Positions 2,054 to 50,511 of a DNA stretch of 64,000 nucleotides are shown piece after piece. The notes beneath the pieces are model-generated. The model had not been told where the DNA came from and made no database searches. It saw nothing but the letters and a program-made list of their open reading frames with translations. This stretch comes from a virus. Lineage: Duplodnaviria > Caudoviricetes. The stretch is from positions 8,080 through 72,079 of IMG/VR virus record IMGVR_UViG_3300033073_000980, one strand, 5' to 3'. The stretch's first letter is position 1, and the number at the start of each line of letters is the position of its first letter. A program made the position numbers and the translations under genes.

Positions 2054-2577
2054 AATTTAGTCCATTTATTTTTATAATCTTTATTCGATGTTGCGTACTG
2101 GGCGTAAGCGTTTCTGATAGGTTGACCGGAGTTATAAGCACCGCATGCTAATGTCCAGTCTCCATGAATTGAATACCACTTACGAAGCATCTGCATACTA
2201 ATCTTAACATTCAGATCAATATTAGTCTTCAATTCTTTCTCGTTGATGTGCCGTCTAACAAAAGGTCTAGCCCAACGGGTAATAATCTGCATCGGTCCAA
2301 CTGCTCCTGCAAATGACTTCTGATAAGGATTATAATCAAAATCAAAAGGGCCTTGGTATCGAGTTTCTAGATAAGCAACATTGTAAGCAATATGCTTTGG
2401 AATGTCGAAACTATCACTCCAGTGCTCAATCGACTCATACATCTGGAGTGAGATAGTTCCGTTAGCTAAATCTAAACGCTCTTCGAAGTAATCCATCCGA
2501 CGATCAATATTGAAGTACATTGCTCCAATAATTCCGAGGATGATAACCAAATACCAGTTTTTTAATTTAGCAAACAT
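2050..2577 (-). CDS. lytic transglycosylase (SLT domain) with N-terminal membrane anchor
   Basis: VAYLETRY (catalytic E), AVGPMQII, NVKISMQML, ACGAYNSG; hydrophobic N-terminus YLVIILGIIGAMYF. Confidence 0.9.
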   Translation of the reverse strand: MFAKLKNWYLVIILGIIGAMYFNIDRRMDYFEERLDLANGTISLQMYESIEHWSDSFDIPKHIAYNVAYLETRYQGPFDFDYNPYQKSFAGAVGPMQIITRWARPFVRRHINEKELKTNIDLNVKISMQMLRKWYSIHGDWTLACGAYNSGQPIRNAYAQYATSNKDYKNKWTKL

Positions 2578-2585
2578 AATTAGTC

Positions 2586-2903
2586 TTATTTAGTTACTAC
2601 AGGGGCAGCAATCTTAGAAGCATACATCTTAAAGATGATTCGACCTACTGAGTCACTATAAATAGTATAGCTTCCAGTCTTGCGATCCATCATTATTAAT
2701 TTGTCTTCTGAATCGATTGCAATTCGAACTTCCTTATTGAGGATAGTTTCGTTAACTGCTTTTGGCTTCATCTTCAATTCATTGAAGTAGTAGCCCAAAC
2801 CAAAGCCGGCAATCAAAGTTGCTGCAACGATGGTGATGTTCATGAATCGGTTGAAGGTAGTCTTCAACTTTGCTTTTTGTTCTGGTGTGATTAGGTTTTT
2901 CAT
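2586..2903 (-). CDS. single-TM membrane protein
   Basis: TM ITIVAATLIAGFGLGYYF. Confidence 0.7.
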   Translation of the reverse strand: MKNLITPEQKAKLKTTFNRFMNITIVAATLIAGFGLGYYFNELKMKPKAVNETILNKEVRIAIDSEDKLIMMDRKTGSYTIYSDSVGRIIFKMYASKIAAPVVTK

Positions 2904-2909
2904 AACTTA

Positions 2910-3206
2910 TTATTTTTCTTTTAGGTATTTTATTGCATTTACAACTTCCTGGCAAAGCTCATATACTTCGTTCTCTACTAGGATTTCTAAATTCTTCTCT
3001 AAAGTTACGATAAATTCTTCAGGATTGCAAGTCAAATCATAAAATTCATCTTCTTCTTCCATCTCTACTGAGATGATATACACATTTTTTTTAGTAGCAT
3101 CTAAATTTGCCAGTATTGCATTGCATATAATAGCTGCAAGGTTAGCATCTCGTTGTTTAACTTTCTCTATGAAGTCAGCCTCTGATTTAACTCTATAGGT
3201 TCTCAT
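2910..3206 (-). CDS. hypothetical protein
   Basis: 98-aa ORF, acidic, C-terminal EVYELCQEV helix. Confidence 0.7.
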   Translation of the reverse strand: MRTYRVKSEADFIEKVKQRDANLAAIICNAILANLDATKKNVYIISVEMEEEDEFYDLTCNPEEFIVTLEKNLEILVENEVYELCQEVVNAIKYLKEK

Positions 3207-7276: not shown

Positions 7277-8164
7277 CTAAGATAGTACTTTTATTATGTG
7301 GTTTGCAACTTCTTTATCAGTTAAGTATGGATCTAATACTACATGGGGATCTCCAAAATACTCTCTAGGTCCTAATCTGGGTTGCTTAATTTTTTTCAAT
7401 ACCCCATTCCATCCATACAGCTGTAAATTAAAATCACCTGTGATGACCGTCTTAGTTCCTACTCCTGCAGCAATCGTAGCTAACCCTCCATCAGTTCCTA
7501 CAAAGGCATCGCAGTATTTCATCACAGATGCTTCAAACAAAAGTGACTTTTGATCATCATCAGGTAGGTGAATAGTTTGCTGTTGATTTGCATCACCGAC
7601 TCCGATTGGATATAAAGTAAAATGCTTCTGCAATTCATCTACGATGTACTGAATATCTCTATGTGCTCCTCCGTATCCTAAATTAGGAACATCAATACCT
7701 GCTTCATATTGCTCAGGAGTGAATAGGTAAGTCTTTGGTTGCCAATTAGTCATCAAAGCAATAACCGGTTTATTATAAGTTACTTTAAGTTCTTCAACCA
7801 CTTGTTCAGCAACTGCATCATATTCAGGTGTCGTATAGATTTTATACTCTGAAGATACTTTCTCCAATCCGGCTTGTTGTTGATACTGCTCACAAGGAGT
7901 AACTTGGTAGTCTAAAGATCCTAACTCAATAACCTTCCCATATTTACTTGTATCTACAGAGCAGTAAGGTTTAGGACCTGGATACTCAGATACAAATACA
8001 TTATCAATACTTGGATTGTTTTGGACCAATTGAGCTACTTGTGGAAAACCAATTAAGTAATCTACTGTTGAGTATTCTTTCTTTAACTTCTCAGCTAGAG
8101 ATGTTGCAAAGATAATATCTCCAAAGAAGCCAAAAGTAATTACTAAACAGTTAGTATTGCTCAT
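7277..8164 (-). CDS. GT9 (heptosyltransferase)-like glycosyltransferase
   Basis: FGFFGDIIFATSL, NNPSIDNV, FVGTDGGLATIAAGVGTKTV; start revised to 8164. Confidence 0.85.
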   Translation of the reverse strand: MSNTNCLVITFGFFGDIIFATSLAEKLKKEYSTVDYLIGFPQVAQLVQNNPSIDNVFVSEYPGPKPYCSVDTSKYGKVIELGSLDYQVTPCEQYQQQAGLEKVSSEYKIYTTPEYDAVAEQVVEELKVTYNKPVIALMTNWQPKTYLFTPEQYEAGIDVPNLGYGGAHRDIQYIVDELQKHFTLYPIGVGDANQQQTIHLPDDDQKSLLFEASVMKYCDAFVGTDGGLATIAAGVGTKTVITGDFNLQLYGWNGVLKKIKQPRLGPREYFGDPHVVLDPYLTDKEVANHIIKVLS

Positions 8165-8528: not shown

Positions 8529-9259
8529 AAGTTTATTTTGTAATTATTTGATTTAATCCATTTTATGTTTTCTAACTCTGTTGAGATTTCCTCTAGAGTG
8601 TACTCGATATTATTATAACCAATATGCCTGTATTCATAAGCCTTGTGGTAAAGCACTTTACCTTCATAGAAGTCTTTCTGATCTTGTTCTGGTTTAAGAT
8701 GTATCGCTCCATTATCATCATGATACAGGCAAAAATAAGTACCTTCAGACTGTCTCACTACTGGAATGCCAGCCCATCTTAGTCTTTCTCTTAGGTCCTC
8801 ATCTTCGTTACCCCATCCTTTATATAGAGGATTCAAACCGTTAATAACCTCAAACTGTTCTCTTGACATCATCACAACTCCTCCGTAGAAGTTAGGATCG
8901 ATTGCTTGAGAGAAGCTTCTATAACCTCCCGGAATGTCATGTTCAGGTCTTAAGCTTGCATTATCCTTATCTAAGAAAAATGCCTTTGCTCCCATCAACG
9001 TAACAGTCCCGGTAAAGGTATAATCTAAATCATCTGCAGGATAGTAATCTACTTGATGTAAGATAATAACATCGCCAGTTGCTTCTCTAAAGCCAATATT
9101 ATTTACAATAGCAATCTGAAAGTTATCCTGGTTGCCTTGCTCTGAGATTATTATCTCATAATCTTTATCTGCGAACTTGTCTTGAAGTCTTGGAAGTAGA
9201 ACTTCAAGATGTTCCTCTCTATTGCGGTAAGGTATAATAATTGAGTATTTCATCTCCAA
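8525..9259 (-). CDS. GT7 beta-1,4-galactosyltransferase-like
   Basis: IIIPYRNREEHL, FYGGVV, INGLNPLYKGWGNEDEDL; DxD motif reads HQVD. Confidence 0.88.
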   Translation of the reverse strand: MEMKYSIIIPYRNREEHLEVLLPRLQDKFADKDYEIIISEQGNQDNFQIAIVNNIGFREATGDVIILHQVDYYPADDLDYTFTGTVTLMGAKAFFLDKDNASLRPEHDIPGGYRSFSQAIDPNFYGGVVMMSREQFEVINGLNPLYKGWGNEDEDLRERLRWAGIPVVRQSEGTYFCLYHDDNGAIHLKPEQDQKDFYEGKVLYHKAYEYRHIGYNNIEYTLEEISTELENIKWIKSNNYKINL

Positions 9260-18847: not shown

Positions 18848-19303
18848 TTAAGACTGGAACATGCCAATGTATTCTAGAGCTTCTATGAAGTCTTTTTCTC
18901 CAAAGTACTTAGCTGTAGACATATCCATTCTGTATTCATAATATTCGTTTTTCTTACCTGGCTTAGGATACTTCTTCTTCTCTTCTTCTGTTACTTTAAC
19001 TGCCTTCACTCCAGTCCAGCGCCAGTTGTCTCGGTTGTTTCCTTGAGCAAACACCATTCCTTTATCAGGATGATTAACCATATTTGGCATCCAAACCTTT
19101 CCATGCTGATCAGTGATCATAAGGTCTTTGTAAAGCTCAGGAAGGATTTCAGCCTGCTGGGCTAGGAATTCACTCCCTTCAGTCATAAGACTGTTAGAGA
19201 GGAATCCACAACCGTAGCAAAGGTAGTTAGTAATTTCAGGAGATACTTCCTGAGTATAGCAGGCATCAGAGCCGCATCTATCACAAATTGTTAAATTGTC
19301 CAT
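18848..19303 (-). CDS. Zn-ribbon hypothetical protein
   Basis: CDRCGSDAC...CYGCG. Confidence 0.7.
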   Translation of the reverse strand: MDNLTICDRCGSDACYTQEVSPEITNYLCYGCGFLSNSLMTEGSEFLAQQAEILPELYKDLMITDQHGKVWMPNMVNHPDKGMVFAQGNNRDNWRWTGVKAVKVTEEEKKKYPKPGKKNEYYEYRMDMSTAKYFGEKDFIEALEYIGMFQS

Positions 19304-20604
19304 TATAACTTCTTCAATTTAGGTAATTCAATTTTCTTTAGAGTAGGTAGTTGTAACTTAACTTCTTTTGGAAACTCTGGGATATGCTTTTCAAAATAGC
19401 TTCCTAGTTTCTCTTTCATCTTCTCGTAAGAGAATTCTGATTTAGATCTAAAGGCCTGTCTCTTTGCATTCTCAGAATACTTTTTATAGTTCTCAAATAC
19501 ATCCTTCAAGTAATGCCCTACATAACCTAAGTCGGGTGAGAACCAAGAAGATTCAGCCAAGATCATATTAGGCACTACTGCACTTGCATGTACTGGTTTA
19601 ACCTCTCCTCCTACCATAGGAATAAGCTCTGGATCTAAATAATCAGTATGTCCAGACCAATTAGTAGTTATGATTGGTTTCTTTACTAGAGAGAATTCAA
19701 GCAAAGGTCTTCCAAAGCCTTCTCCTTTAGTCAAGTTAACCATCGCTTTTACTTTAGGATGATTGTAGAGCTGGTTAATTTCATTATCTGAGAATTCACC
19801 ATGAAGTAGATAAACGTTAGGTACATTAACAGAATTAACTGTGCTTCTAATCATTGCAATCCTTTTCAAGATCTCTTCCCGGTCCATATAAGATGTTCCT
19901 GTGATTGATGTTTTTAAGATCAATGCAGGCTTCTTCATCTTATTCTTGAACGTTTCGTAGAATGCTTTTACTAGTAACCCAACGTTCTTTCTATCCTCTC
20001 CAACATCACCTTGCAGCCAATGACCTACAAACAGGTAAGCAAAGTCTTCTTTAATGTTAGAAAGGTCTATAGAGGTTATCTCTTTAGTTTCAATCGGCTT
20101 GTATACATCAATGTTAGCTCCTTCAAACAACACCTCAACCGGTTTTTCTAATTTAACCATTTTAACTATTTGATTAGTCTGTTGGTCTCTCTGTTCGAAA
20201 GTAGAATCCTCAAATACCTTCTTTGCATGCTCTGAAGATACATAAGTAATGTTCATTCTGTTAACTCCTTCAACCCATTCCGGAGCACACATCGTAGTTT
20301 CAATACCGGCTGTGAATCCGATATTGTACTTACCAACTGGTTGGAACTCATTAGGAACTGTAACTTGGGCCCAGATCTCCGGCTGCTTTGGCAGCTGAGG
20401 CTGTCTCAACATATGCTCTTCAAGGAAGCCCCAACTCTCCTGATGGTCTTGAATAAAGTTCCAAGGAGTGTTTCCCCATCGTTGAGGAAGAATTTTAACA
20501 TCGTACTTATCTAATTCGATGATTGCTTTGACCAAGTCTCTTGATCTTGATCCATACCCAGAGTAGGTATCAATAGGACAACTTATTACAAATAACGGCT
20601 TCAT
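19303..20604 (-). CDS. GT4-like glycosyltransferase
   Basis: YSGYG, EDRKNVGLL, TKGEGFGRPLLEF, NWSGH. Confidence 0.88.
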   Translation of the reverse strand: MKPLFVISCPIDTYSGYGSRSRDLVKAIIELDKYDVKILPQRWGNTPWNFIQDHQESWGFLEEHMLRQPQLPKQPEIWAQVTVPNEFQPVGKYNIGFTAGIETTMCAPEWVEGVNRMNITYVSSEHAKKVFEDSTFEQRDQQTNQIVKMVKLEKPVEVLFEGANIDVYKPIETKEITSIDLSNIKEDFAYLFVGHWLQGDVGEDRKNVGLLVKAFYETFKNKMKKPALILKTSITGTSYMDREEILKRIAMIRSTVNSVNVPNVYLLHGEFSDNEINQLYNHPKVKAMVNLTKGEGFGRPLLEFSLVKKPIITTNWSGHTDYLDPELIPMVGGEVKPVHASAVVPNMILAESSWFSPDLGYVGHYLKDVFENYKKYSENAKRQAFRSKSEFSYEKMKEKLGSYFEKHIPEFPKEVKLQLPTLKKIELPKLKKL

Positions 20605-22040
20605 TAATAAACTAATTTATGAACTAACTTCTTTTTAGCAACTTCTCCTGCAAGGACTAATTCGTATTTCTCTCTTGGCTTCCAAGTTTCAAATAGAACA
20701 TCCATATGCTTAATAATTTTATCACTCATCTTCTGAGAAGTGAATCCTGCTTCATCTCCTGTAGCCCATACCCGGCCTGCTTCTCCTCTTGCCTTTCTTT
20801 CTTCAGCACCAAGTTCATAAACGGCCTGGATTTGTTTTGCAGCATCCTCTGCCTCACATCGATCATCGTAGATGTATGGAGTCGGAATTGATCCTACTAT
20901 CGATCTTGAAGTTGGGAATACTGGGAAGGCCCACTCTCCACACTCCTTATAAGTACCTCTGTGGTTACTTGGAAAGTCTGCATCAAAGTCCAACCACTTA
21001 CCATCTTTAACAAATCGCATCTGATCCTGCATACCGCCGGTAACGTTTGCAATAATGGGCGTTGCTGAAAGCAATGCTTCGGTCAAACTCAAACCCCATC
21101 CCTCATTCGAAGTTAATAGAATGCAAGTATCAGCCAGGTTATACAACCAGTTCATCCTAATTGAATCGAACATACCTCCTGTGAAATGAACATTGCAATA
21201 ATCCTCCGGACATAACAATTCAATAACTGCATTCAAGTCTGTACCATGCTCATCGGCCGGCTGGGTATGAAGAAGTAGTAAGCACTTCTGTGCTTTCTCT
21301 TTCGGTAAGGTATCCACAAAATGCCTGAATGCCAAGATTGTATCCGGGATCTGTTTCCGGCGAATGTTACGCGAATTAAATAGAACGACGAAGTCGATCT
21401 CCTTTCCTTGAAACATCTGCTTTTTAAACTCTTTAAACTCTTTTGAGTCTAATTCACTTTCAGTCAAAGGTCTAAAATTGTTTTCATTAACTCCGTGAGG
21501 TACATACTCAATCATTTTATATTGAGCCTTCTCTCCTAAGACGAGTTTGTTGATATTAACCGTCTGTTTTGAAATACCGAACAATGCATCACAAGACTCA
21601 TAGAACTCCTTGTTGTAGAGAGGTGCAGGATAGTCATCCCAAATATTCAAATACACAATCGGGATGTGCTTTCTAATTTCATTCTCCATTTGGAACAACC
21701 AAGTCCAATAACGTGGATCGGTAATGATAAAGATTGCATCTGGCTTTTCAATTGCAATCAATTGACGTACTAGATCGGGACTACCGTACCCGTCGGTTGG
21801 GTAGAGCATGACAGAGGCATCTTGGATGCCGATCTGTTTGCCGGTATCGTCGGAGAGGTCAAAGCGTTGACCGGCTTCCGGGTGCTTAATAGCACCTCCA
21901 ACGTTTACCCAATTGTAGTGGTGGGCGGTGTTAATTACTAACTCCCTTCCCATGTGCGCGATTCCGGAATGAACGCGAATGTCATCGCACATCAATAAAA
22001 TTTTCTTTCGTTTGTCTTTTGGTATATAACCGTCTTTCAT
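20604..22040 (-). CDS. GT4-like glycosyltransferase
   Basis: HSGIA, NSRNIRRK, SNEGWGLSLTEAL, NVTGGMQDQ. Confidence 0.9.
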   Translation of the reverse strand: MKDGYIPKDKRKKILLMCDDIRVHSGIAHMGRELVINTAHHYNWVNVGGAIKHPEAGQRFDLSDDTGKQIGIQDASVMLYPTDGYGSPDLVRQLIAIEKPDAIFIITDPRYWTWLFQMENEIRKHIPIVYLNIWDDYPAPLYNKEFYESCDALFGISKQTVNINKLVLGEKAQYKMIEYVPHGVNENNFRPLTESELDSKEFKEFKKQMFQGKEIDFVVLFNSRNIRRKQIPDTILAFRHFVDTLPKEKAQKCLLLLHTQPADEHGTDLNAVIELLCPEDYCNVHFTGGMFDSIRMNWLYNLADTCILLTSNEGWGLSLTEALLSATPIIANVTGGMQDQMRFVKDGKWLDFDADFPSNHRGTYKECGEWAFPVFPTSRSIVGSIPTPYIYDDRCEAEDAAKQIQAVYELGAEERKARGEAGRVWATGDEAGFTSQKMSDKIIKHMDVLFETWKPREKYELVLAGEVAKKKLVHKLVY

Positions 22041-24170: not shown

Positions 24171-24369
24171 CTTCTATTGGTTCAATTACTTGTACTTCGT
24201 TAACAAAATAATATTCGTCTCCGTGTTTGAATACTTTCTCGGCATGCCAAGCATCTTTCATTTCGTTAGTTGATTCGGTCGGGAGAACAGCTCCCATTTT
24301 GACCTTTAGTATCCTAACGATCTCATACATGGTATCCTGTATATAAACTGTTCTCCCTAACCCAACCAT
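24061..24369 (-). CDS. hypothetical protein
   Basis: TAATG overlap with the groEL stop; C-terminus overlaps the next ORF. Confidence 0.55.
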   Translation of the reverse strand: MVGLGRTVYIQDTMYEIVRILKVKMGAVLPTESTNEMKDAWHAEKVFKHGDEYYFVNEVQVIEPIEDEQDRNQGELTADSSEDTTGGQMDLGGGDRDQEEHN

Positions 24370-25994
24370 TATCCTAACATTAACTGCTTGGTCATATCAT
24401 CCATGTCGTTAGAACCGTTCTGAGAAGGTTCGTCTGCAACGACACATTCGGTCAATAGGATTGTTCCTGCTACTGATGCTGCATTCTCCAAAGCCGTTCT
24501 AGTTACTTTGAATGGATCAATAATCCCGGCATCTTTCATATTATCGAGGTTCTCTTCTTTAATATTCCAGCCTGTCCACATATCAGGAGTAGCGTTAATC
24601 TTAGCAACAATATAACTCACCTCCATAGAATCATAACCGGCATTGGTTAAGATCTTATGAAAAGGCATTAGACATGCTGCTGAGATGATCTGATAACCGG
24701 TGCTTGTATTCTTATTAACGGCACGTGAACTTTGTAACAAAGCAATACCACCACCGGGAACAATTCCTTCTGCAATAGCAGCTCTAGTTGCATGCAAGGC
24801 ATCCTCTACTCGGTCCTTCTTCTCTTTCATTTCAAGTTCTGAATTACCTCCAACGTGGATGATTGATACACCGCCTGTAAACTTAGCTAAACGCTCTTGA
24901 AGCTTCTCCATCTCAAAAGGACTCTTTGCATTATCGATCTGAGCTTTCAAGTCTTCAATACGAGAAGTAATAGCATCCATATCACCTTTACCGTCAATGA
25001 TGGTAGTTGATTCTTTTTGGATGTTTGCTTTACGAGCTTGACCCAACCATGCTTTATCTACCCGGCTCAACTTCATTCCTTTCTCAGGAGAGATTACTTG
25101 ACCGCCGGTCAATACTGCGATGTCTTCCATGATAAGCTTTCTCCTATCACCGAAGTCAGGAGCTTTAACTGCACATACTTTGATAGTACCCCGCATCTTA
25201 TTTACAATCAAGGTAGCCAAAGCTTCGTTGTCAATATCTTCGCAGATGATCAACAATGATTTATTATCAGATGAAACTGATTCAAGAATAGGAAGAAGGT
25301 CTTTAGCCTGTGAAAGCTTCCCATCATAAATTAAAACTAAAGGACTGTCTAGTACTGCTGACATAGTTGCATTGTCAGTAACGAAGTGAGGAGATTTAAA
25401 TCCTCGATCGAACTGAATACCCTCAACTGTTTCTAGATAAGTTTCACCTGTTCTAGATTCTTCAATAGTAACAATCCCGTCTCTGCCTACTGCAGCCAAA
25501 GCCGAAGTAATTAGAGAGCCTACTTCAGGGTCGTTGTTTGCGGACACAGTTGCGATCTGGTCTAACTGCCCCTCTGAAGTAATATCTTCAACGATATTTT
25601 CTTTGATGTAAGCAATTACTTCTTTAACTGCTTTATCAATATCGCGTTTAATTTGTACTGCATTACCTCCTTCATCCAAAGCTTTCAATCCTTGGTTAGT
25701 AATGAATTGAGCTAGCAAAGTTGAGGTTGTAGTTCCATCACCGGCAATGTTTGCAGTCTTGATTGCTGCTTGCTTAAGCATATCAACGGCGATTGAATGT
25801 ACGGGGTCTTTCAAAGAGATAATCTTTGCAACCGTAACTCCGTCCTTGGTAGAACGAACTTCACCTGTCTCATTTCTATAAACAACATTTCGGCCATTAG
25901 GACCTAAAGTGGATGTAACTGCGTTAGCTAGCTTATCAATTCCTTCTGATAACTGCTTACGTGCTTGGTTTGAATATTCTATCTGCTTACTCAT
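24369..25994 (-). CDS. groEL: chaperonin GroEL
   Basis: TLGPNGRNV, TKDGVTVAK, AGDGTTTST, GIQFDRG, KAPDFGDRR, EGIVPGGG. Confidence 0.98.
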   Translation of the reverse strand: MSKQIEYSNQARKQLSEGIDKLANAVTSTLGPNGRNVVYRNETGEVRSTKDGVTVAKIISLKDPVHSIAVDMLKQAAIKTANIAGDGTTTSTLLAQFITNQGLKALDEGGNAVQIKRDIDKAVKEVIAYIKENIVEDITSEGQLDQIATVSANNDPEVGSLITSALAAVGRDGIVTIEESRTGETYLETVEGIQFDRGFKSPHFVTDNATMSAVLDSPLVLIYDGKLSQAKDLLPILESVSSDNKSLLIICEDIDNEALATLIVNKMRGTIKVCAVKAPDFGDRRKLIMEDIAVLTGGQVISPEKGMKLSRVDKAWLGQARKANIQKESTTIIDGKGDMDAITSRIEDLKAQIDNAKSPFEMEKLQERLAKFTGGVSIIHVGGNSELEMKEKKDRVEDALHATRAAIAEGIVPGGGIALLQSSRAVNKNTSTGYQIISAACLMPFHKILTNAGYDSMEVSYIVAKINATPDMWTGWNIKEENLDNMKDAGIIDPFKVTRTALENAASVAGTILLTECVVADEPSQNGSNDMDDMTKQLMLG

Positions 25995-42300: not shown

Positions 42301-42441
42301 CTAATTTTCTTCTTCTAGATCCTCTACCATTACATTTAATGCTAGATCTAGTGCATGGAGGTCATCCCACAAATCTTCTTCTCCTAAGTCGGCATCAAGC
42401 CACTCTCTGTCTTCGTCTGTTAATTCTTCCGGTGTAACCAT
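42301..42441 (-). CDS. highly acidic microprotein (46 aa)
   Basis: Manual ORF MVTPEELTDEDREWLDADLGEEDLWDDLHALDLALNVMVEDLEEEN; TAATG overlap with the holin. Confidence 0.55.
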   Translation of the reverse strand: MVTPEELTDEDREWLDADLGEEDLWDDLHALDLALNVMVEDLEEEN

Positions 42442-42842
42442 TATTCTGATTTATGTCTGTCAATTTTATTTAGGATTGCTGCTAAGGCATCGTTCTTAAT
42501 AAAGCCGGCTTGTTCTGCATTCTTTAATGCACTTATAACCTGGAATACTATTAATGGAATTAAAATCGTTTCTGATAACCATGATGTTCCTTTGAAACCT
42601 GCTTCAACCATTATTAGTGCCGTCAAAGTAATAATCCAGGCAACTAATGTTTTTAATATTCTTATTGCTTTGTAGGTCTTAAATCCTTCTCTTTTAGTTC
42701 CAGCAATAACGCCAAAGAAACCATCCATAAAGATTACTGCAACAACGGCCAGATATTGGTCCGAGTTTTCCATTGCTAAGTTAAAAAAGTAGCTGCATAC
42801 AAACGCAAATGCAGCCGTTGTTGTCAGTAGAGTCTCTTTCAT
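42441..42842 (-). CDS. phage holin (3 TM)
   Basis: FMDGFFGVIAG...GFKTYKAIR...FQVISALKNA, typical holin pattern; near the endolysin. Confidence 0.75.
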   Translation of the reverse strand: MKETLLTTTAAFAFVCSYFFNLAMENSDQYLAVVAVIFMDGFFGVIAGTKREGFKTYKAIRILKTLVAWIITLTALIMVEAGFKGTSWLSETILIPLIVFQVISALKNAEQAGFIKNDALAAILNKIDRHKSE

Positions 42843-42843
42843 G

Positions 42844-43224
42844 TTATCCTATTTCTTCGTCTAAGTGATCTGGTATTCCGTCTCCGTCAACGTCGCAAAT
42901 TTCAACGTATCCGAATGCTTTCATGAATTTAGCAACCCTTTCCTTCAGGTCGTTATCACTATCCTCAAACCAATCTTCTTTTAGATTGTCGTGATCTAGA
43001 ATATTAATTAGAGCATCGTAAAGCTTATCAACATCTTCTACTAAATAAATATCAGATGCTGCAAAGTCTAAACTAAAAGCATAGTCGTCAATTTGAGGAA
43101 TTTTTAATAAATCATCAATCTTGCCGATCTTCTTTTCTTTTAAAGGCATTTCCTTTCCAAACTTGTGGAAGTACTCACCTACATAGATGTACCCTTGTCC
43201 TTCTTTTAATTGAAACTCACTCAT
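42844..43224 (-). CDS. degenerate GIY-YIG/T5orf172-like protein with DxDxDG motif
   Basis: GYIYV...KKIGK...EDWF; C-terminal DVDGDGIPDHLD. Confidence 0.45.
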   Translation of the reverse strand: MSEFQLKEGQGYIYVGEYFHKFGKEMPLKEKKIGKIDDLLKIPQIDDYAFSLDFAASDIYLVEDVDKLYDALINILDHDNLKEDWFEDSDNDLKERVAKFMKAFGYVEICDVDGDGIPDHLDEEIG

Positions 43225-44057
43225 TACTTTAATAAATTATAATATTCTCTGAAATGTTTAATTCTGTCTGCCAGGCCAATAGTACCTCCGTTAACTCTTT
43301 TAGTAACAGCCGTAACTGTTGCATCATCAGCTCCTCTGTCGCAGATACCCCAAAGTCTGTTTGTATCAAAGAACCAAGCAGCAGATGCTAAAGGATACTT
43401 TGTAGCTACTAAATCAGGATTGGCTGTTGTATCTTCAGGTACAAACTTATCAAAAGCCACGTAGTTTGCTTTTCCAGTTAATTGGATATAACCACGACCT
43501 CTATATTTGTAACCTTCTCCTGTTGCTTCAGGACCGTTACCCATTCTACCTCCGTAAACTCTTGAGGCAATCTTCTCTGGCTTACGAGCATAAGCTTCAG
43601 CTAAAGCCAAAGTTGGAAAGTATCTTCCAAAAATACCCATCAAACCTTTTGAAGAATAGTTTAGATTCTCCTGAACAGCTTTGAAACCTCCTGATTCATG
43701 ACCACATTGTGCCAAGAAATGGGCAAGTCTCAAAGGAGATGTTATATTAAATTTAGCAGCAGTCTCAGGAATCTGAGCAAGTACTGCATCGGGAACGTGT
43801 CCCTTTAGATTGTTTAACTTTAATGGACCTGATGAGATTGGAGCTGCAGCTGGTGCAGGGGCAGTACCTGGAGTTATCCCGAACATTTTATTCCATGTTC
43901 CGTCTCCTACTATACCGTCAGGAGTTAAGCCATTGGCTGCTTGCCAAGCCTTAACTGCCTCTTCAGTCTTAGGTCCAAAGTTTCCTATAGGCTCCACGCC
44001 TAATTTTACCTGGAGCTTTTTAACGTTTTCGTTATTATCACCTCTTTTTAGTAACAT
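43224..44057 (-). CDS. endolysin: peptidoglycan-binding domain + GH19-family catalytic domain
   Basis: FGPKTEEAVKAWQ...PDGIVG; LAHFLAQCGHESGGF, YRGRGYIQLTGKANY, VTKRVNGG. Confidence 0.93.
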   Translation of the reverse strand: MLLKRGDNNENVKKLQVKLGVEPIGNFGPKTEEAVKAWQAANGLTPDGIVGDGTWNKMFGITPGTAPAPAAAPISSGPLKLNNLKGHVPDAVLAQIPETAAKFNITSPLRLAHFLAQCGHESGGFKAVQENLNYSSKGLMGIFGRYFPTLALAEAYARKPEKIASRVYGGRMGNGPEATGEGYKYRGRGYIQLTGKANYVAFDKFVPEDTTANPDLVATKYPLASAAWFFDTNRLWGICDRGADDATVTAVTKRVNGGTIGLADRIKHFREYYNLLK

Positions 44058-44059
44058 AA

Positions 44060-44320
44060 TTAACCTTCTTCTTCTGGGCTTTTGTTATCTTGTTTCTTGT
44101 TAATCCATTTATCTACTGATGCAATACCAAATGATCCTAGAACCATTACCATGAAACCATCAAAAATAATCTTGTTAAGAACAAACTCCTTACCAGAATA
44201 ACCAGTGATGATGTCTACAATAAATGCAATACATAGCATAAAGAATGCAACAAATCCTACAACACTTTTTTCATTAATGCTGTTGTTGTCGTCGAATAAT
44301 TGTGAGAAAAATTTTTTCAT
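44060..44320 (-). CDS. 2-TM membrane protein (holin/antiholin-like)
   Basis: Two TMs, charged termini, directly upstream of the endolysin. Confidence 0.6.
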   Translation of the reverse strand: MKKFFSQLFDDNNSINEKSVVGFVAFFMLCIAFIVDIITGYSGKEFVLNKIIFDGFMVMVLGSFGIASVDKWINKKQDNKSPEEEG

Positions 44321-44321
44321 A

Positions 44322-44774
44322 TTAGAATTGTTTAGTTGTTTTAGTTAAACTTTCTTGTAACGCTTTAGAAAACGCCTTTCGGTTTAACGGAACTTCGTTG
44401 TTTTCAACGTTTAAAAACATTGCAAAAACAAACGTTCTTCTTTCACCAACTGATTTGAAACAACCTGAACCAATACAAATACTGGTCTCAACAATATAAT
44501 CTTTTCTCAACCATTGGATTCCCATGATGTTTAGTATTTGCTGGGGTGAGTAAATACTATCTATCCCAACCTGAACATCAAAAGCAACTCCTGAATCAAC
44601 AGGGGTGTATCCTTTATTGATTAAAAGCTCTTCGACTTCTTCTTTAACTCCAAAAGTAACATTCCTACCCCCAATCGTTTCGATGTGCTGGTTGTTATTA
44701 ACATGCACTTTAACGAAGGTAGTATCTTTAATTGGAGCTAATGCAAATAGTATAGAAGCGAGTGTGCTTAACAT
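44322..44774 (-). CDS. exported alpha/beta protein, CsgG/TolB-N/LptE-like fold (tentative)
   Basis: Short hydrophobic N-terminus; GVKEEVEELLINKGY helix...AFSKALQESL C-terminal helix. Confidence 0.45.
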   Translation of the reverse strand: MLSTLASILFALAPIKDTTFVKVHVNNNQHIETIGGRNVTFGVKEEVEELLINKGYTPVDSGVAFDVQVGIDSIYSPQQILNIMGIQWLRKDYIVETSICIGSGCFKSVGERRTFVFAMFLNVENNEVPLNRKAFSKALQESLTKTTKQF

Positions 44775-44778
44775 CTAT

Positions 44779-44786
44779 TATAAATA
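44779..44786 (-). promoter_or_regulatory. class 2 (TATTTATA) putative late promoter of the lysis run
   Basis: 4 nt upstream of the ATG at 44774. Confidence 0.5.
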
Positions 44787-45770
44787 TCAGTAAGTCACCT
44801 GTCCGGCATAGCCTGGAGCAATAATATACAAACTTAATGTACCTCCTGAAGTTAAAGTTGAGGTTGTATATGTAGATACTCCCGGGTAAGTAGCTCTTGT
44901 GTTTATTTTTGCTGCTTTGATAGCATTATATTCAGCAGTAGTGAAAATACGAACATCAGGAGCTGTTCTCCATCTAGAAAATAAGCCAGCCTTCCTCGCT
45001 GCCACGTAATATTTATCTGCTATTGAAATCGCCCCGTCATCATTAACATCAAACATATGATAAGACAATCCATTCCTAACTGTCTTCCCTAATATTAAAT
45101 TAGATACTCCTTGAATGTCTGTGTTGTTATAAGCTTGAACTCTGGTTGGGGCTGATATTTCAATATAATATTCTTTTGAAGGATCATAACTTTCCGAAAT
45201 AGAGTAGTACCCTGATGAATTAGTGTAGATAGTTTTGTATAAAGTCCATGAAGAAGTTGTAACTAGGTATTCAAATTCCAATACATAAGCAAGGCTAGAA
45301 GTTCCATTTAAGTCATTCCATCTTCCTCCAGATACAAATTGAACATAATCTTCATTACCTGAGTTATTTGGTTCTCCTGAGTTCCAGTTAGTGTAGGAAT
45401 AAGTTTCTCCTGTGACCCATCTCCAAGTTCCCTCTGTTACTTCATCTGTAAGTCCGATCCACCCTGAGGGCCATAATCCGAATATGAACGATTGCTCTCC
45501 TGAGCTTGTAATTGTTACTAAATGCCCGCCCATATTTGCACAATTAGACTTCGCTATTTGCCAGTTTGCCGTTCCTGTAGATCTATAATAAGAATGCCCG
45601 TTGTAGTTCTGCTGGTTAGTGAATCCAGTGATAGTTGAGTTTGTTCTTCTATAAAGTTTAACAGCAACGTTATTTGCTCCTGATCCGTTTGCATTATACA
45701 AATACCCTGAATAAGTAAATTGTCCTAGCAGAGAATTTGTTAATAGTAAAAATACAACAAGTAATCTCAT
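44787..45770 (-). CDS. secreted C-type lectin + dockerin-like protein
   Basis: SP ...SLLG|Q; CTL motifs YNGHSYY, WIGLTD, WNSGEPNN, WND; dockerin-like NLILG...DVNDDGAISIAD. Confidence 0.85.
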   Translation of the reverse strand: MRLLVVFLLLTNSLLGQFTYSGYLYNANGSGANNVAVKLYRRTNSTITGFTNQQNYNGHSYYRSTGTANWQIAKSNCANMGGHLVTITSSGEQSFIFGLWPSGWIGLTDEVTEGTWRWVTGETYSYTNWNSGEPNNSGNEDYVQFVSGGRWNDLNGTSSLAYVLEFEYLVTTSSWTLYKTIYTNSSGYYSISESYDPSKEYYIEISAPTRVQAYNNTDIQGVSNLILGKTVRNGLSYHMFDVNDDGAISIADKYYVAARKAGLFSRWRTAPDVRIFTTAEYNAIKAAKINTRATYPGVSTYTTSTLTSGGTLSLYIIAPGYAGQVTY

Positions 45771-47095
45771 AATAGTAATTTAGCTCCCATTAATATTTGG
45801 TAGTTAAGTACACTCTGACTAGCAACATAAGTTCCACCTCCGGTTAATCCAACTCCAAACGTCTTAGTTAGTTTATAATTAAAGTTAAAGAAGGGAATGA
45901 TGATTGGCTTTGCTTCAAAGAGAGACTCTGTGTAATACTTGGTATACGGTGAATATACACAGGCTGCTATTATAGTAGCATCCAAAGCTCTTGCTAACTT
46001 ACCTTTGTACATAAACCCTCCAATAGCTAAAGTTGAAATCATTTCTTCTCCGTAAAGGTTTCCATAGGTTCCAGCTGCTCCGTAGAGTGCTGTAAAGTTT
46101 TTAACTGAGTTTACTCTGACTGCTAATGCTGTATTAGACCAAGATTTAGGTAAGATACCAAAAGCATCTGAAACTACATTGATGTGTTTGTTTCCTTTTT
46201 TGTTAACTCCAATCCAGGATCTCATTACTGAAAGGTTTCCAATCCGGGCATTAACCATGTAATCGGCTGAGAATCCTAATGAGGCTGTTCCGTCTCCTTT
46301 TACTCTAGTGAAGGACATAGTTCCTCTTGCATCCCTAGATCCATCATCTGCTTTTTGAACTCCAACAATATCTCCTGTAACTAAGATTGCAGGCTTGGCA
46401 ACTTCTGCTTTTGCTTTAGAGGTTGACTTAGCTGTTGAGTTAGAAGACTCTTTCTGAGTTTCGGTCTTCTGTTCTTCTACTTGCTGTTCGGTTGGCTTGT
46501 CTTCTGTTTTCGGTTCTTCTGTTTGTCCTTGTCCAGACCCGGAACCGCCGCCATTGCCACTGCTACCAGAAGAGGACCCACTGCTACCACTAGAACTAGT
46601 ATTGCCTGAAGTATTGCTTGCATCGGAGTTCTGGTTCGTATTCGACTGAGGATTTCCATCTTCTTGTTTGTTATTTGAAGTACTTACCGATCCGGTACCT
46701 GTTGAAGTTGCACCTCCTACATTTGTTCCTACTGATGTAAATGACCCAACGTTGGCAATAGAATTTAAGTTCATTACACTATTAACAACGTTTGAAGCCA
46801 AGTTACTCGATGTGGTCGTTGTAGTTGTTGCTACTGCCCCTTGACATGGAGAGGTTGACTTGTATTTATTATAAGTATCAAGCATCCATAAATCAAAGGT
46901 TCCATCTTGTAGTTCAACATAGCTAAACGTTCTAATCTGATTATAATAAACAACCACAATCGGGCTATTCATATCAGCGGTTATAAACTTGCTTTCTTTC
47001 GTACAAGGATCAATATACGAATAAAGAAAGGACTGCCCGTTTAGAGACAGTCCTATCATAAATAAAAATAATAATATTTTAGTTTTTAAAGACAC
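45767..47095 (-). CDS. exported protein with Ser/Gly/Thr linker and predicted outer-membrane beta-barrel C-terminus
   Basis: SP ...SLNG|Q; low-complexity linker; alternating strands ending FNYKLTKTFGVGLTGG...YQILMGAKLLL. Confidence 0.65.
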   Translation of the reverse strand: MSLKTKILLFLFMIGLSLNGQSFLYSYIDPCTKESKFITADMNSPIVVVYYNQIRTFSYVELQDGTFDLWMLDTYNKYKSTSPCQGAVATTTTTTSSNLASNVVNSVMNLNSIANVGSFTSVGTNVGGATSTGTGSVSTSNNKQEDGNPQSNTNQNSDASNTSGNTSSSGSSGSSSGSSGNGGGSGSGQGQTEEPKTEDKPTEQQVEEQKTETQKESSNSTAKSTSKAKAEVAKPAILVTGDIVGVQKADDGSRDARGTMSFTRVKGDGTASLGFSADYMVNARIGNLSVMRSWIGVNKKGNKHINVVSDAFGILPKSWSNTALAVRVNSVKNFTALYGAAGTYGNLYGEEMISTLAIGGFMYKGKLARALDATIIAACVYSPYTKYYTESLFEAKPIIIPFFNFNYKLTKTFGVGLTGGGTYVASQSVLNYQILMGAKLLL

Positions 47096-47774
47096 CGTTC
47101 CTGATTAAGCTTTCAATTACTTTAGTTGTAGCAGTCTCTAAAGACTTTCTAGTTGCTTTACCAACAGTGCTTTGTGAAAACTTCATATCAAGACTCTTCA
47201 GGAATGATTCTCCTACTTTAGTTGCTTCTCCCTCTCCTGAGCCGATGTATACTTGTCCGGTCATTGCATCCACGAACCGAACTTGGAGGCGTAAGAAAGT
47301 AGTAACGACAACTTTGCTCTTACCTTTCTCAACAGTCTCGTCTTCATCAACAGCAAAATCGGCCACAGTAACATAAACAAAGTAACGAGCAGCTTTAATT
47401 TTACCCTTTCCATCAATGGGCTCTTCGAAGACTCCTTTCTTTGAGGCTTTGAATTGGGTAACCATCCGTTCTTTGATTTCGGACTTTTCTTCGGTGAATA
47501 TAAATCTTCCTGTTTCATCTAAATAATCTAATACTGATTCTGCAAAACCTAAACCAACATTCTTTTCTTGAAGGTCTGGGTATAGAGCTAGAACCTTGGT
47601 CATATCAACGTTAATTACCTGAACAGCATATTTTAAACTGTCTGTGTAATTAGATACTGTTGAGATGTCTTTGGTCTCAATAACATCCTGCTCGGTGGTA
47701 GTCTTCATAGAACCACATCCGGCTAATGTCATAACCACCAAGGTCATAAACTTATTGAACCATTTTTTTACCAT
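47079..47774 (-). CDS. CsgG-family lipoprotein
   Basis: Lipobox LAG|C; GFAESVLDYLDETGRFIFTE, YFVYVTVADF, LQVRFVDAMTGQVY. Confidence 0.75.
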   Translation of the reverse strand: MVKKWFNKFMTLVVMTLAGCGSMKTTTEQDVIETKDISTVSNYTDSLKYAVQVINVDMTKVLALYPDLQEKNVGLGFAESVLDYLDETGRFIFTEEKSEIKERMVTQFKASKKGVFEEPIDGKGKIKAARYFVYVTVADFAVDEDETVEKGKSKVVVTTFLRLQVRFVDAMTGQVYIGSGEGEATKVGESFLKSLDMKFSQSTVGKATRKSLETATTKVIESLIRNGVFKN

Positions 47775-48094
47775 GGATCTTCTTCTTTAGCGGGTTCAGC
47801 TTTAGCAGGAGCAGCTGCTGGCTTTTCAACTACACGCTCTTTAATGATTGTGTTTGTTCCACCACCTTGCTTAACTTGCTGTTTGTTCTCTTGATTCTGT
47901 TGAACGTTAATTACAACAGGAGCAGCAGAACTAGCAGGAGCTGCTTGTTCAGTTTTAACTTCTTCTTTAGGCTCGTCACCACCGCCTAAGTGGGTTACAA
48001 ACCAAGCACCGCCGGCTGTAACTGCTGTAGTGATAGCACCAATGATTGCTTTCTTGGTAGCTGACATTACGCTTTCTTCTTTTTCTTCTGACAT
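47768..48094 (-). CDS. single-TM protein with low-complexity periplasmic stalk
   Basis: TM AIIGAITTAVTAGGAWFV; Ala/Pro/Glu/Gln-rich, ends EEDPW. Confidence 0.7.
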   Translation of the reverse strand: MSEEKEESVMSATKKAIIGAITTAVTAGGAWFVTHLGGGDEPKEEVKTEQAAPASSAAPVVINVQQNQENKQQVKQGGGTNTIIKERVVEKPAAAPAKAEPAKEEDPW

Positions 48095-48095
48095 A

Positions 48096-49988
48096 TTATT
48101 TATTTATAATTATTTTTGAAGTTGAGATTTTAGTATCTGTTTTTACAGACATTAAATAAAAGCCGTTATCTAAAGGAGTTAAATTTACTAAGTATTTGTA
48201 TTCTCCAGCAGGCATTTTGGTATTGATAACCTCCATTACCTCTCTTCCAATCAAATCACTAACAGATACTTCAGTTTGAGATTCTTGCTCAACTTTAAAT
48301 TGAACCATTACCTCACCTTGGGTTGGGTTAGGAAAGATAATAACTTCTCCTAAGTCGGTCAACTTAACAGGCTTATTAATTCTTCTTACTTCAATTACTC
48401 CCATGGCTGGAGTGATGTTCATATCTCTTGCATCATCACCTCCAACAAATTTAGGACCGGTCCAGATTGCAGCACTACCCCATTCTGATTGAGGCTTCTT
48501 AGCAATGAATTGCATAGTTAAGATCTGCTCACCATCGTTGATTAATTGATTACCTTTTAAGTCAGCAGCACCAAAAGCAACTACTCCGTTATCAGGGCTA
48601 GTGTATGAAGTCCAATTCATCATCTTTTCAGTCAAGTCAATTTTCTTGAACTCAAGTAATGCTGTGTCGTACTTTAACTCTAATTGAACTGCACCTAACT
48701 GTTTTCCGTTAGTAAGCATCTTAACAGGAACGTTAACTAAGTTACCTTCATCAACTTTAACCTTAGGCATATTAACTTCAATAGTCTCAGTTACATCATC
48801 ATACTGAACTGTGTTATCAATAATGTAATTCTTAGCATTGGTTGGGTTGATAATCTTAATAGGAGTCAAACGAGCCATCTTAAAGCCAGTTGCGTTTGCA
48901 TCTCCTTTAACTGCTACATAGTAAGTAATTGAATCCTTACCATCAATTGAGTAAGTCAAGTTATTAACAGTAGAGTAAGTAGAAGTTAAGTTAGTAGCTG
49001 CTCCATTGATTGCATTAAATTCGGCAACAGTGAAGAACATTACATCCTTTTTAGAATTAGGCCAAGCATTAAATCTACCTGCCAATCTTCCATATACTGA
49101 ATAAACATCTACAATGCTGATTGTTCCATCAGTTCCGTTAACGTCCATTGTGTAGTAATCAAATCCTGAAGGAGTGTATTGAGCTAAGACTGCTTGGTTG
49201 ATCTTCTGTGCATCAGCAGTTGAGAATACTGAACCAGGAGTCATTGTATCTCCTTTGATTGCCATTCTAACATCCCAGTAGGTAGTATCTAAGAATTTTC
49301 TGAATACAACATGACCTAGTGAGTTAGTTGCTTTAGCTTCTACTTGAGTCCAGGTTGAAGAACCTTTTGCTCTTTTCTCTAAAGATACCCACAAGTTCTT
49401 AGCATCTGAACCTGTAACGTTCTTAAACTTAGCAGCAAATCTTAACACCTTCTGATTGAAACGACCACCGTAAGAATAAACTACCAAAGTAGTATCATTA
49501 CCCCAGTTAGTAGCAGCTTTGTTTGCAAATGATTTAACTCCGGCTACTTTTAAAGTCTTAATAGAATCTAAGTTGTTCCAGATAGCTTCTCCGGCATGAG
49601 TGAAAGTTAAATCAAAGGTTGCTCCATCAGAATAATTGAAAGTTGAGTTAGTACCTGTGTAAACAACAGTAACTGTTAAGAACCCTTGAGCATTACTATC
49701 TACATACTGTAAGTACTGGTCTGTAGTAGAAATCTTCAATGTAGGAACAACTCCGGTGAATGCAGTGTTATCGTAGTAAATACGGTACTGCATACCTGTA
49801 ATCTTCTCAGAAGTAGATGTGTTGTAAAAATAAAGAGGGGCAACAGTTTGTCCGACAGTAGTTGTAGCTACTTGATAACCAGAATCAATTACTACCCAGT
49901 GCCCTGTTCCAGGTGAGGTTGATGCTGATTGTGCCGATACTCCGAAAACGGCTAAGGCCGTTAGAAGAAATGCGATGAGTTTTTTCAT
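48096..49988 (-). CDS. T9SS type A cargo: cohesin-like, dockerin-like, cohesin, CTD (scaffoldin-like)
   Basis: SP ...GVSA|Q; ITGMQYRIYYD; DVNGTDGTISIVD...KGDAN; VNVPV...LGAVQLELKYDTALLEF; IFPNPTQG...DLIGREV...NGFYLMSV...KIIINK. Confidence 0.85.
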   Translation of the reverse strand: MKKLIAFLLTALAVFGVSAQSASTSPGTGHWVVIDSGYQVATTTVGQTVAPLYFYNTSTSEKITGMQYRIYYDNTAFTGVVPTLKISTTDQYLQYVDSNAQGFLTVTVVYTGTNSTFNYSDGATFDLTFTHAGEAIWNNLDSIKTLKVAGVKSFANKAATNWGNDTTLVVYSYGGRFNQKVLRFAAKFKNVTGSDAKNLWVSLEKRAKGSSTWTQVEAKATNSLGHVVFRKFLDTTYWDVRMAIKGDTMTPGSVFSTADAQKINQAVLAQYTPSGFDYYTMDVNGTDGTISIVDVYSVYGRLAGRFNAWPNSKKDVMFFTVAEFNAINGAATNLTSTYSTVNNLTYSIDGKDSITYYVAVKGDANATGFKMARLTPIKIINPTNAKNYIIDNTVQYDDVTETIEVNMPKVKVDEGNLVNVPVKMLTNGKQLGAVQLELKYDTALLEFKKIDLTEKMMNWTSYTSPDNGVVAFGAADLKGNQLINDGEQILTMQFIAKKPQSEWGSAAIWTGPKFVGGDDARDMNITPAMGVIEVRRINKPVKLTDLGEVIIFPNPTQGEVMVQFKVEQESQTEVSVSDLIGREVMEVINTKMPAGEYKYLVNLTPLDNGFYLMSVKTDTKISTSKIIINK

Positions 49989-50446
49989 TTTTGTATGTTA
50001 GTTAATTGAGTTATTGCATGCTGTTTTAACCAAGGTTCAGGATTGTCTAACTTGTCAATAAAGTCAAGCTCGTACCTGTAACACCATGCTTCCTCTTGCT
50101 CAGGAATTATGATGTACCCTTTCTGTAAAACATGCAAATGCAAACTCTCATGAACTAACACCACTGCAAGGTTGTTAATTGAATTTAACTGCACATCTTT
50201 TATGGCAACCAGTATCGTTCCTTTGTTTCCATAACTTCCTTCATTAGAAGAAAAACCGGAAGACCAGAACTCTACCCTCTCACAAACACTATCTAACAAC
50301 TGATACTTTTCAATATCTGTTTTTTTAATTAACTGTAATGCTGAATCTATTTTTTGATCCCATCCGTCACCGGCTTTGTCTACTTTTATTTGAGCGTAAG
50401 CTAAGTTGGCTATAAGTAACAAACTAGTTAGAAATAGACCTTTCAT
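49985..50446 (-). CDS. secreted zinc metallopeptidase-like protein
   Basis: SP ...LAYA|Q; LVHESLH plus downstream EEAWCY. Confidence 0.7.
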   Translation of the reverse strand: MKGLFLTSLLLIANLAYAQIKVDKAGDGWDQKIDSALQLIKKTDIEKYQLLDSVCERVEFWSSGFSSNEGSYGNKGTILVAIKDVQLNSINNLAVVLVHESLHLHVLQKGYIIIPEQEEAWCYRYELDFIDKLDNPEPWLKQHAITQLTNIQK

Positions 50447-50463: not shown

Positions 50464-50490
50464 AAAAAGGCCTGCGTTAACAGGCCCTTT
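50464..50490 (-). terminator. rho-independent terminator after nrdJ
   Basis: GGCCTG/CAGGCC stem, 6-nt loop, U5 on the minus strand. Confidence 0.8.
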
Positions 50491-50511
50491 CTCAAACTTT
50501 TTCGATTAAGT

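Follow-up and report, generated by a model that had tools for sequence, protein, structure and literature searches.

We describe here a block of seven adjacent genes, designated g1 to g7, at positions 44322-50446 of a 64,000-nucleotide (nt) stretch of viral DNA (Duplodnaviria; Caudoviricetes), hereafter the window, which corresponds to positions 8,080 to 72,079 of the IMG/VR viral record IMGVR_UViG_3300033073_000980. The record is 72 kb long, with a CheckV completeness of ∼44%, and all of its genes are on the minus strand, which applies to every gene and domain listed below. The block had been singled out from the letters and translations alone (the sequence-only reading) as a set of coupled genes running into a lysis cassette, and this description was confirmed. 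Indeed, the seven open reading frames (ORF) are all present, neighbors overlap or are 1-12 nt apart and, as assessed from the ORF of the window, the block continues unbroken into a further small gene (g8), an endolysin gene, and a holin gene. On its other side is a ribonucleotide reductase gene, which is one of the replication genes of the record, together with genes for a DNA polymerase, an exonuclease, a UvsX-like recombinase, and a replicative DnaB-type helicase, the last named by its match to the annotated helicase of phage immuto. None of g1 to g8 matches a PHROG family, and therefore nothing in PHROG ties the block to known virion or lysis families.

The block is conserved far beyond this record. 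Scans of viral contigs with g4 as query returned 129 relatives, and the immuto homologue as query returned 117 more, so that at least 246 viral contigs, sampled in freshwater, aquaculture, wastewater, estuary, and marine settings, bear a g4 relative. When 162 viral loci, many of which are truncated contigs, were searched with a profile of each gene, g5 was found in 162, g3 in 158, g2 in 154, g7 in 145, the g6 docking module in 144, g8 in 102, and g1 in 100. At least eight gene orders occur in these loci. The g2-g3-g4-g5 core is invariant, g1 may be at either end of the block, even on the opposite strand, and g6 and g7 exchange places in some loci. The arrangement is far beyond chance, as the block is co-conserved in 162 loci. 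Pairwise dN/dS values are 0.06-0.13 for all seven genes (0.12 for the endolysin), i.e. the seven genes are under purifying selection. A co-conserved, phage-specific module of exported proteins is supported by the 162 loci, and a lectin head that is swapped between relatives fits modular glycan binding.

In the collections searched, the block appears to be specific to phages. Among 50,697 phage isolates it is found only in the Flavobacterium immuto phages, in which its genes are annotated as hypothetical or by domain name only (cohesin- or lectin-domain-containing protein), and of which phage vB_FspM_immuto and Flavobacterium sp. LMO8 form a cultured pair. A scan of 185,579 bacterial species genomes with the g5 profile gave a single match, a 16.5-kb contig of a metagenome-assembled genome (MAG) with the whole block. 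This contig (locus L165; RFPL01000028.1, "Sphingomonadaceae bacterium" MAG, an alphaproteobacterial bin) carries g8, g1-g5, and part of g6 with ∼60% identity, and is most likely a mis-binned phage contig.

Extra genes are present in or beside the block of some relatives. In L001 (9575-10153, immuto gene 12) and L160 (9677-10261), an Endonuclease_NS gene (DNA/RNA non-specific endonuclease, E 4e-19), whose product has a Sec signal followed by Gln, adjoins the block or is within it and looks like a secreted phage nuclease, as judged from its sequence; there is no Endonuclease_NS gene in the block of the window. L160 has in addition a GIY-YIG/NUMOD3 homing-endonuclease-like gene (2424-3005) directly upstream of g2, and such genes could help to shuffle the block. 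In L117, an extra ORF of 120 amino acids (aa) with no Pfam match (8678-9040) is located between g4 and g5.

g2 (48096-49988) encodes a 630-aa protein composed of a signal peptide, an N-terminal cohesin-like region (unproven), a β-sandwich with a dockerin-like module, a cohesin domain, and a type A C-terminal domain (CTD) for type IX secretion system (T9SS) sorting. The sequence-only reading had proposed both the cohesin and the CTD, and both exceed the Pfam/NCBIfam cut-offs. The cohesin domain (residues 403-507; 48468-48782) matches PF00963 with E 6.3e-11 and 43.1 bits (cut-off 24.1). The CTD (residues 551-628; 48105-48338), which displays PNP, GxY, and K-I-I-x-N-K motifs, matches PF18962 (E 9.8e-12, 45.4 bits, cut-off 27) and TIGR04183 (E 3e-11, 43.1 bits, cut-off 23) up to residue 628/629, and a PDB profile search matched it to solved CTD chains of F. 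johnsoniae (8glk_D, E 8e-4). These matches show that g2 is a cohesin protein addressed to the host T9SS, its export being predicted. We infer a T9SS-bearing host from the Flavobacterium host of the immuto relatives. Residues 207-366 (48891-49370) form the β-sandwich and dockerin-like module, paralogous to the module at the C terminus of g6 (32% identity). This region has a transthyretin-like fold match in the PDB profile search (E 0.002), and no match to Dockerin_1 (PF00404) was found in g2. A second cohesin in the N-terminal 150 residues of g2, which look cohesin-like by eye, is a lead at most, the comparison with the cohesin region by hhalign being not significant (E 0.46). In the immuto group, g2 is split into two genes.

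g6 (44787-45770) encodes a secreted 327-aa protein with a C-type lectin head, a conserved β-sandwich/dockerin-like module, and no T9SS CTD. The lectin domain (residues 68-163; 45282-45569) matches PF00059 with E 1.2e-17 and 65 bits (cut-off 22.6). In C-type lectins, an EPN motif followed by WND is the signature of the mannose/N-acetylglucosamine type, and both the EPN of g6 (residue 133) and the WND that follows it are retained by all 25 lectin-type orthologues as well as by immuto gene 13. The lectin named in the sequence-only reading was thus verified, and sequence analysis shows g6 to be a secreted C-type lectin with an intact predicted calcium/sugar site, fused to a dockerin-like module. 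The latter (residues 170-327; 44790-45263) has one canonical calcium loop, DVNDDGAISIAD, which is EF-hand-like (D-x-N-x-D-G-x-I-x-x-x-D) with invariant D72, N74, and D83 (alignment A6), and an upstream repeat in which the helix is kept but the calcium ligands are not. The module also shows a weak match to the CipA X-dockerin 2b59_B (E 0.13). The name dockerin, as given to g6 in the sequence-only reading, could not be upheld, with PF00404 under threshold and a single canonical calcium loop; dockerin is not established and "dockerin-like" is the term we use for this module on the strength of its sequence.

Although the C-terminal 158 residues of g6 are conserved, close relatives have PA14, GEVED, concanavalin A (ConA)-like (Laminin_G_3), Ig_7, or unknown domains in place of the lectin head. 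The exchange of heads among near-identical phages suggests that strain-variable glycans are the target, which would fit a function in receptor masking or cell capture.

g4 (47079-47774) shows the strongest conservation in the block, with 82-99% identity across relatives, and encodes a 231-aa lipoprotein of the outer membrane (lipobox LAGC). Alone, g4 has no Pfam match, but 16 of 40 g4 homologues match Pfam CsgG (PF03783; best E 1.9e-17) and 6 of 40 match LpoB, while the g4 family profile matches Escherichia coli CsgG with E 9e-5. An AlphaFold2 (AF2) monomer model, with a predicted local distance difference test score (pLDDT) of 85, has CsgG chains as top Foldseek matches (E 1.7e-6, TM-score 0.4-0.5), followed by FlgT, PelC, GNA1162, and LptE-like lipoproteins. 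A CsgG-like lipoprotein, as first proposed, is thus supported by family profile, homologues, and model, but the CsgG pore that went with it is not. As assessed from the sequence and the monomer model, g4 has a single long hairpin, which is short for a CsgG membrane hairpin and has a charged tip (AVDEDETVEKGKSKV; DEDETVEKGKSK), and the region equivalent to the second membrane hairpin of CsgG is ∼10 residues shorter, polar, and gapped in the CsgG alignment, i.e. this hairpin is absent. We therefore read g4 as a probable periplasm-facing lipoprotein with a CsgG fold and not as a pore. The curli partners CsgF, CsgE, and CsgA/B have no Pfam or NCBIfam match in g1-g8. In a protein search for g4 homologues, the listed relatives all have at least 86% identity; distant relatives were found on contigs of 1-3 kb, including the marine contig L084, and the fused g4 homologues (kinase-CsgG and others) have no link to g5.

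The last gene of the block, g7 (44322-44774), encodes an exported 150-aa protein that had been described as CsgG/LptE-like. Direct profile-profile comparison of g7 with g4 was not significant (probability 0.8%), and a PDB sequence search with g7 gave nothing meaningful. A link to the CsgG-like family comes solely through L084, where an all-ORF search identified a bridging 173-aa ORF after the g4-g5 pair, with a match to each of the two profiles (E 1e-14 and 2e-7). This bridging sequence suggests that g7 is probably a shortened paralogue of the CsgG-like fold of g4.

g5 (45767-47095) encodes a 442-aa protein with a signal peptide, an N-domain (residues 22-85) containing two conserved cysteines, a poly-Thr stretch, a hypervariable linker rich in Ser, Gly, and Asn, conserved Lys/Glu-rich helices (residues 203-232), and a predicted C-terminal outer-membrane β-barrel (residues 236-442; 45770-46390) that ends in G-A-K-L-L-L. 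In the AF2 model (pLDDT ∼65-75), twelve strands (residues 236-440) follow the helices. Foldseek matches of this model are outer-membrane barrels only (TamA, NalP, KdgM, and FapF), in agreement with the barrel originally suggested. The top match in VIA is the translocator of NalP (Z 15.5, root mean square deviation 4.7, 224 residues aligned), closely followed by porins and transporters of 12 to 16 strands, within ∼1 Z unit. No match to Pfam Autotransporter was found in g5, even at E values up to 10. The modeled layout may thus be described as autotransporter-like or FapF-like, with sequence membership in neither group.

Between g2 and g4, which it overlaps by 7 nt, g3 (47768-48094) encodes a 108-aa bitopic inner-membrane protein. 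It consists of an acidic N terminus, a KK pair, one transmembrane (TM) segment, and a low-complexity periplasmic tail, rich in Gln/Asn and Pro/Ala and with no evident coiled coil, which ends in ...EEDPW. This C terminus is invariant across orthologues as ...(E/D)(E/D)(P/S)W. The single-TM stalk seen in the sequence-only reading is in keeping with these features, which show g3 to be an inner-membrane protein with a periplasm-crossing tail, in a predicted topology.

At the start of the block, g1 (49985-50446) encodes a secreted 153-aa protein whose signal peptide ends in ...AYA, followed by Gln, and which is a candidate mini-zincin. An orthologue alignment shows that HESxHL, E118/E119 (15-16 residues downstream), C122, and Y123 are invariant. 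The HExxH motif on which g1 had been called a peptidase is thus conserved, but the peptidase label relies on this motif because no peptidase family and no PDB entry was matched. Weak hints of a zincin came from SprT-like (E 0.008), Tox-MPTase2, and DUF5700, and from DUF6647 and eCIS_core by language-model features.

Each product of the block has an export signal or a TM segment, as originally claimed, with g7 being assigned through its orthologues. Sec signal peptides in g1, g2, g5, and g6 have a Gln after the cleavage site, which is the Bacteroidetes Q-rule (PMC5837995), seen previously in proteins of Porphyromonas phages (PMC10367356). g4 has its LAGC lipobox, g3 its single TM segment, and g7, whose N terminus is atypical in the window, has a canonical signal peptide in divergent orthologues. 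These features show that the block products bear Bacteroidota-style export signals, as read from their sequences.

Beyond g7, g8 (44060-44320) encodes an 86-aa protein with two TM segments and is followed by the endolysin gene (43224-44057; PG_binding_1 and GH19), which is adjacent to the module but outside it, and, further downstream, by the holin gene (42441-42842). In L155 and L160-L162, g8 is located between g3 and g4, and elsewhere it precedes or follows the block. It is probably an eighth member of the block, a holin/antiholin being the alternative. A weak, sub-threshold match of g8 to TssN of the Bacteroidota type VI secretion system was also recorded (E 1.7e-4). Among the 81 loci of a second, more divergent set, 51 have the endolysin directly adjoining the block, on the upstream side in some lineages and on the downstream side in others. 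This adjacency and the mobility of g8 around the block imply a selective pressure to stay with lysis genes. The linkage suggests late expression and keeps a role in lysis or egress alive. The immuto phages differ in that the 9-kb flanks examined show no lysis genes beside the block.

The upstream border of the block had been described as a terminator plus a short motif. A terminator-like hairpin of the intrinsic type is present at 50464-50491 (minus strand), 3′ of the ribonucleotide reductase gene and 5′ of the g1 start codon; reading from 50491 to 50464, a 12-bp stem is followed by CTATTTATAA and then by the g1 start codon. The window contains 13 copies of the TATTTATA motif where 14.4 are expected, and its candidacy as a promoter was rejected because this frequency is at chance level. 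Sigma-70-like sites were fewer than in shuffled sequences, the site model not being one of Bacteroidota promoters. Other genes of the window were recorded in passing. An acidic 126-aa protein with no family match, conserved in many relatives, is encoded between the endolysin and holin genes (42844-43224). The record also carries a full-length GroEL-like chaperonin (24369-25994; phrog_5725, E 3e-147) and two adjacent glycosyltransferase-like genes (19303-22040; phrog_2170), which could conceivably be connected with the Ser/Thr-rich linker of g5 or with the lectins.

How could these proteins work together? We propose that they form a late, phage-built complex of seven or eight proteins in the envelope or on the surface of the host, which displays glycan binders, and we put the probability of this reading at about one half. 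The infected Flavobacterium-type cell would export the block proteins, which would assemble in its outer envelope. g5 would be the outer-membrane anchor and would have g4 and g7, the probable shortened g4 paralogue, as partners on the periplasmic side, by analogy with PelC/PelB and LptE/LptD, and the invariant C-terminal ...DPW tail of g3 would link the complex to the inner membrane. The host T9SS would deliver g2 to the cell surface, where the dockerin-like module of g6 may plug into the g2 cohesin, so that exchangeable heads (lectin, PA14, GEVED, or ConA-like) would be displayed on the infected cell or on debris. Since the block is packed against lysis genes, the complex probably acts late. 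Its likeliest jobs would be to coat or mask glycan receptors on infected cells and debris, or to stick cells together. The sequence-only reading had listed aggregation, receptor masking, and grazer deterrence as candidate roles. A more specific version, a plug-and-socket display in which a T9SS-exported cohesin scaffold and a phage outer-membrane anchor hold lectin heads on the dying host, masking receptors or capturing neighbors, is tentative, and we would sooner bet against it than on it.

Several observations weigh against the proposed surface complex. Dockerin_1 matches are sub-threshold (13.2 bits, E 0.1 for g6; 17.4 bits, E 0.005 for the L029 orthologue; cut-off 22.9), and the g6 module has only one canonical calcium loop, compared with the two tandem loop-helix repeats of type I dockerins. 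Because g4 is without the CsgG membrane hairpins, there is no established way for g6, g1, and g7 to cross the outer membrane. Confidence in the g5 model is moderate. Contigs of relatives in one metatranscriptomic library span the whole block, including a 1,080-nt contig across g5-g4-g3, but such contigs cannot prove transcription, as DNA carry-over is possible. Finally, a lysis-related role would account equally well for endolysin adjacency and for the position of g8 within the block of some lineages.

Such a role, as an accessory of lysis or egress, would see g3 and g4 bridging the periplasm like a two-component spanin and, together with g5, g1, and the surface proteins, weakening or opening the outer membrane and the surface layers after holin and endolysin have acted. 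The gene arrangement is what speaks for it: the block is packed directly against g8, endolysin, and holin, the endolysin stays next to it in 51 of 81 divergent loci despite rearrangements, the two-TM g8 is located between g3 and g4 in some lineages, g3 and g4 overlap by 7 nt in the order i-spanin then o-spanin, and Pfam and PHROG scans found no recognizable spanin in the lysis region. The proteins themselves fit less well, since g4 is a 231-aa globular protein with a CsgG fold and not a short, proline-rich o-spanin, the low-complexity tail of g3 has no evident coiled coil, and membrane fusion would have no obvious use for lectin heads, a cohesin, or a T9SS tag. Moreover, T9SS export must precede the collapse of the proton-motive force by the holin, and the immuto block is away from lysis genes in the 9-kb flanks examined. 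On balance, we consider a lysis accessory unlikely. The same g4 fold could instead be taken to indicate secretion of the curli or holdfast type, in which g4 (with g7 as accessory) and/or g5 would be an outer-membrane conduit exporting g6, g1, and perhaps a fiber protein, making cells sticky for "sibling capture" as envisaged for the csgG/csgF genes of pelagimyophages. Homologues and fold place g4 in the CsgG/HfaB family, g5 also resembles the amyloid exporter FapF, g6, g1, and g7 carry signal peptides without a T9SS tag and hence need an outward route, and a phage csgG/csgF operon of unknown function has been published (PMC7029224). A CsgG-like barrel is nonetheless unlikely given the charged hairpin tip (DEDETVEKGKSK) and the absence of the second CsgG hairpin, no homologue of CsgF, CsgE, CsgA, or CsgB was detected, and the block has no amyloid-repeat protein, all of which makes a secretion conduit improbable in our eyes.

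Phage fibers and capsid decorations can likewise bear lectin, PA14, and Ig-like domains, and the swapping of the g6 head between close relatives is reminiscent of receptor-binding proteins, which raises the question whether the products are virion components or, more trivially, those of unrelated accessory genes that happen to be side by side. Virion assembly is cytoplasmic, with which the Sec signal, lipobox, TM segment, or T9SS tag on each product is incompatible; moreover, no PHROG structural family was matched, and the variable part of g6 is an N-terminal head, whereas fibers usually vary at their distal C terminus. A chance neighborhood is contradicted by the invariant core order and by co-occurrence in 162 loci. 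We regard either of these explanations as very improbable.

If the surface complex that we favor is real, a widespread clade of 150-300-kb aquatic phages of Flavobacteria rebuilds the host surface with a modular assembly for glycan binding, using the type IX secretion of the host itself. These hosts are key degraders of algal polysaccharides, and the block would represent a new class of phage-driven surface changes affecting adsorption, aggregation, and particle attachment. It would also provide a natural cohesin-dockerin-like pair at work outside cellulolytic bacteria. The late regions of Bacteroidota phages are crowded with "exported hypothetical proteins", to which the block would give a concrete function. 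Should the plug-and-socket display hold as well, the block would amount to a viral counterpart of the cellulosome scaffold that has been repurposed for phage ecology. The cultured immuto/LMO8 pair makes the question directly testable.

Among known systems, cohesin-dockerin assemblies of the cellulosomal and non-cellulosomal type, such as the X-dockerin of Clostridium thermocellum CipA and the anchoring scaffoldins, share with the block a cohesin above threshold, a β-sandwich followed by a calcium-loop helix module with weak X-dockerin matches, and exchangeable heads on a constant docking module. The block differs in being encoded by a lytic phage, in having a T9SS sorting domain as anchor instead of SLH (S-layer homology) domains or sortase, and in carrying lectin heads in place of enzymes. 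In addition, its dockerin-like module is sub-threshold with one canonical loop instead of two, and the pairing is putative.

Two phage precedents are closer in setting. Pelagimyophages of the HTVC008M group contain a csgG/csgF "curli" cluster of unknown function (Zaragoza-Solas et al. 2020, PMC7029224), which resembles the block in that a large aquatic myophage has a CsgG-family lipoprotein in a small operon of exported proteins between replication and late genes. In contrast to that cluster, the block has no CsgF, its g4 is without the CsgG membrane hairpins, and its host belongs to another phylum; it also includes a T9SS-addressed cohesin protein together with lectins, a barrel of autotransporter-like layout, and a putative tether to the inner membrane. 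The "Cryophage" of Bacteroidota, known from metagenomes, encodes type A T9SS cargo, one with PA14, which is highly variable between variants (Bellas et al. 2020, PMC7468147). Type A sorting domains and PA14 in a Bacteroidota phage are thus common to both, but Cryophage cargo consists of single enzymes or a PA14 protein with its own CTD, whereas here the CTD is on the cohesin scaffold only, the glycan binders have none, and the genes form a conserved multi-protein block.

For the envelope components, the nearest likenesses are bacterial or lytic systems. With type Va autotransporters (NalP and EspP), g5 shares a signal peptide, a passenger-like N-terminal part, a helix, and a C-terminal 12-strand barrel (NalP Z 15.5); it differs in having no Pfam Autotransporter match and in a passenger reduced to a ∼60-aa knob and a disordered linker, in what is a moderate-confidence model. 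As in PelC/PelB and LptE/LptD, adjacent overlapping genes encode a periplasm-facing lipoprotein (g4, with PelC and LptE-like folds in its match list) and a barrel (g5), and as in the spanins Rz/Rz1, g3 and g4 are in i-spanin/o-spanin gene order beside lysis genes, with a TM segment, a lipobox, and a 7-nt overlap. Sequence membership in these three systems was not found, no polysaccharide-export or lipopolysaccharide genes are linked to the block, and compared with Rz/Rz1, g4 is globular and far larger than an o-spanin and g3 is without an evident coiled coil.

Our literature searches found no phage system in which a cohesin and a dockerin-like module are combined with lectins, a CsgG-fold pair, and a barrel of autotransporter-like layout, and nothing relevant on a phage cohesin-dockerin system or on a CsgG-type lipoprotein for superinfection exclusion. 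Two points that the sequence-only reading did not have are that T9SS cargo (PMC7468147) and csgG/csgF (PMC7029224) have already been reported in phages. We class the block among phage-encoded modifications of the host envelope, assembled here from domain families that are known.

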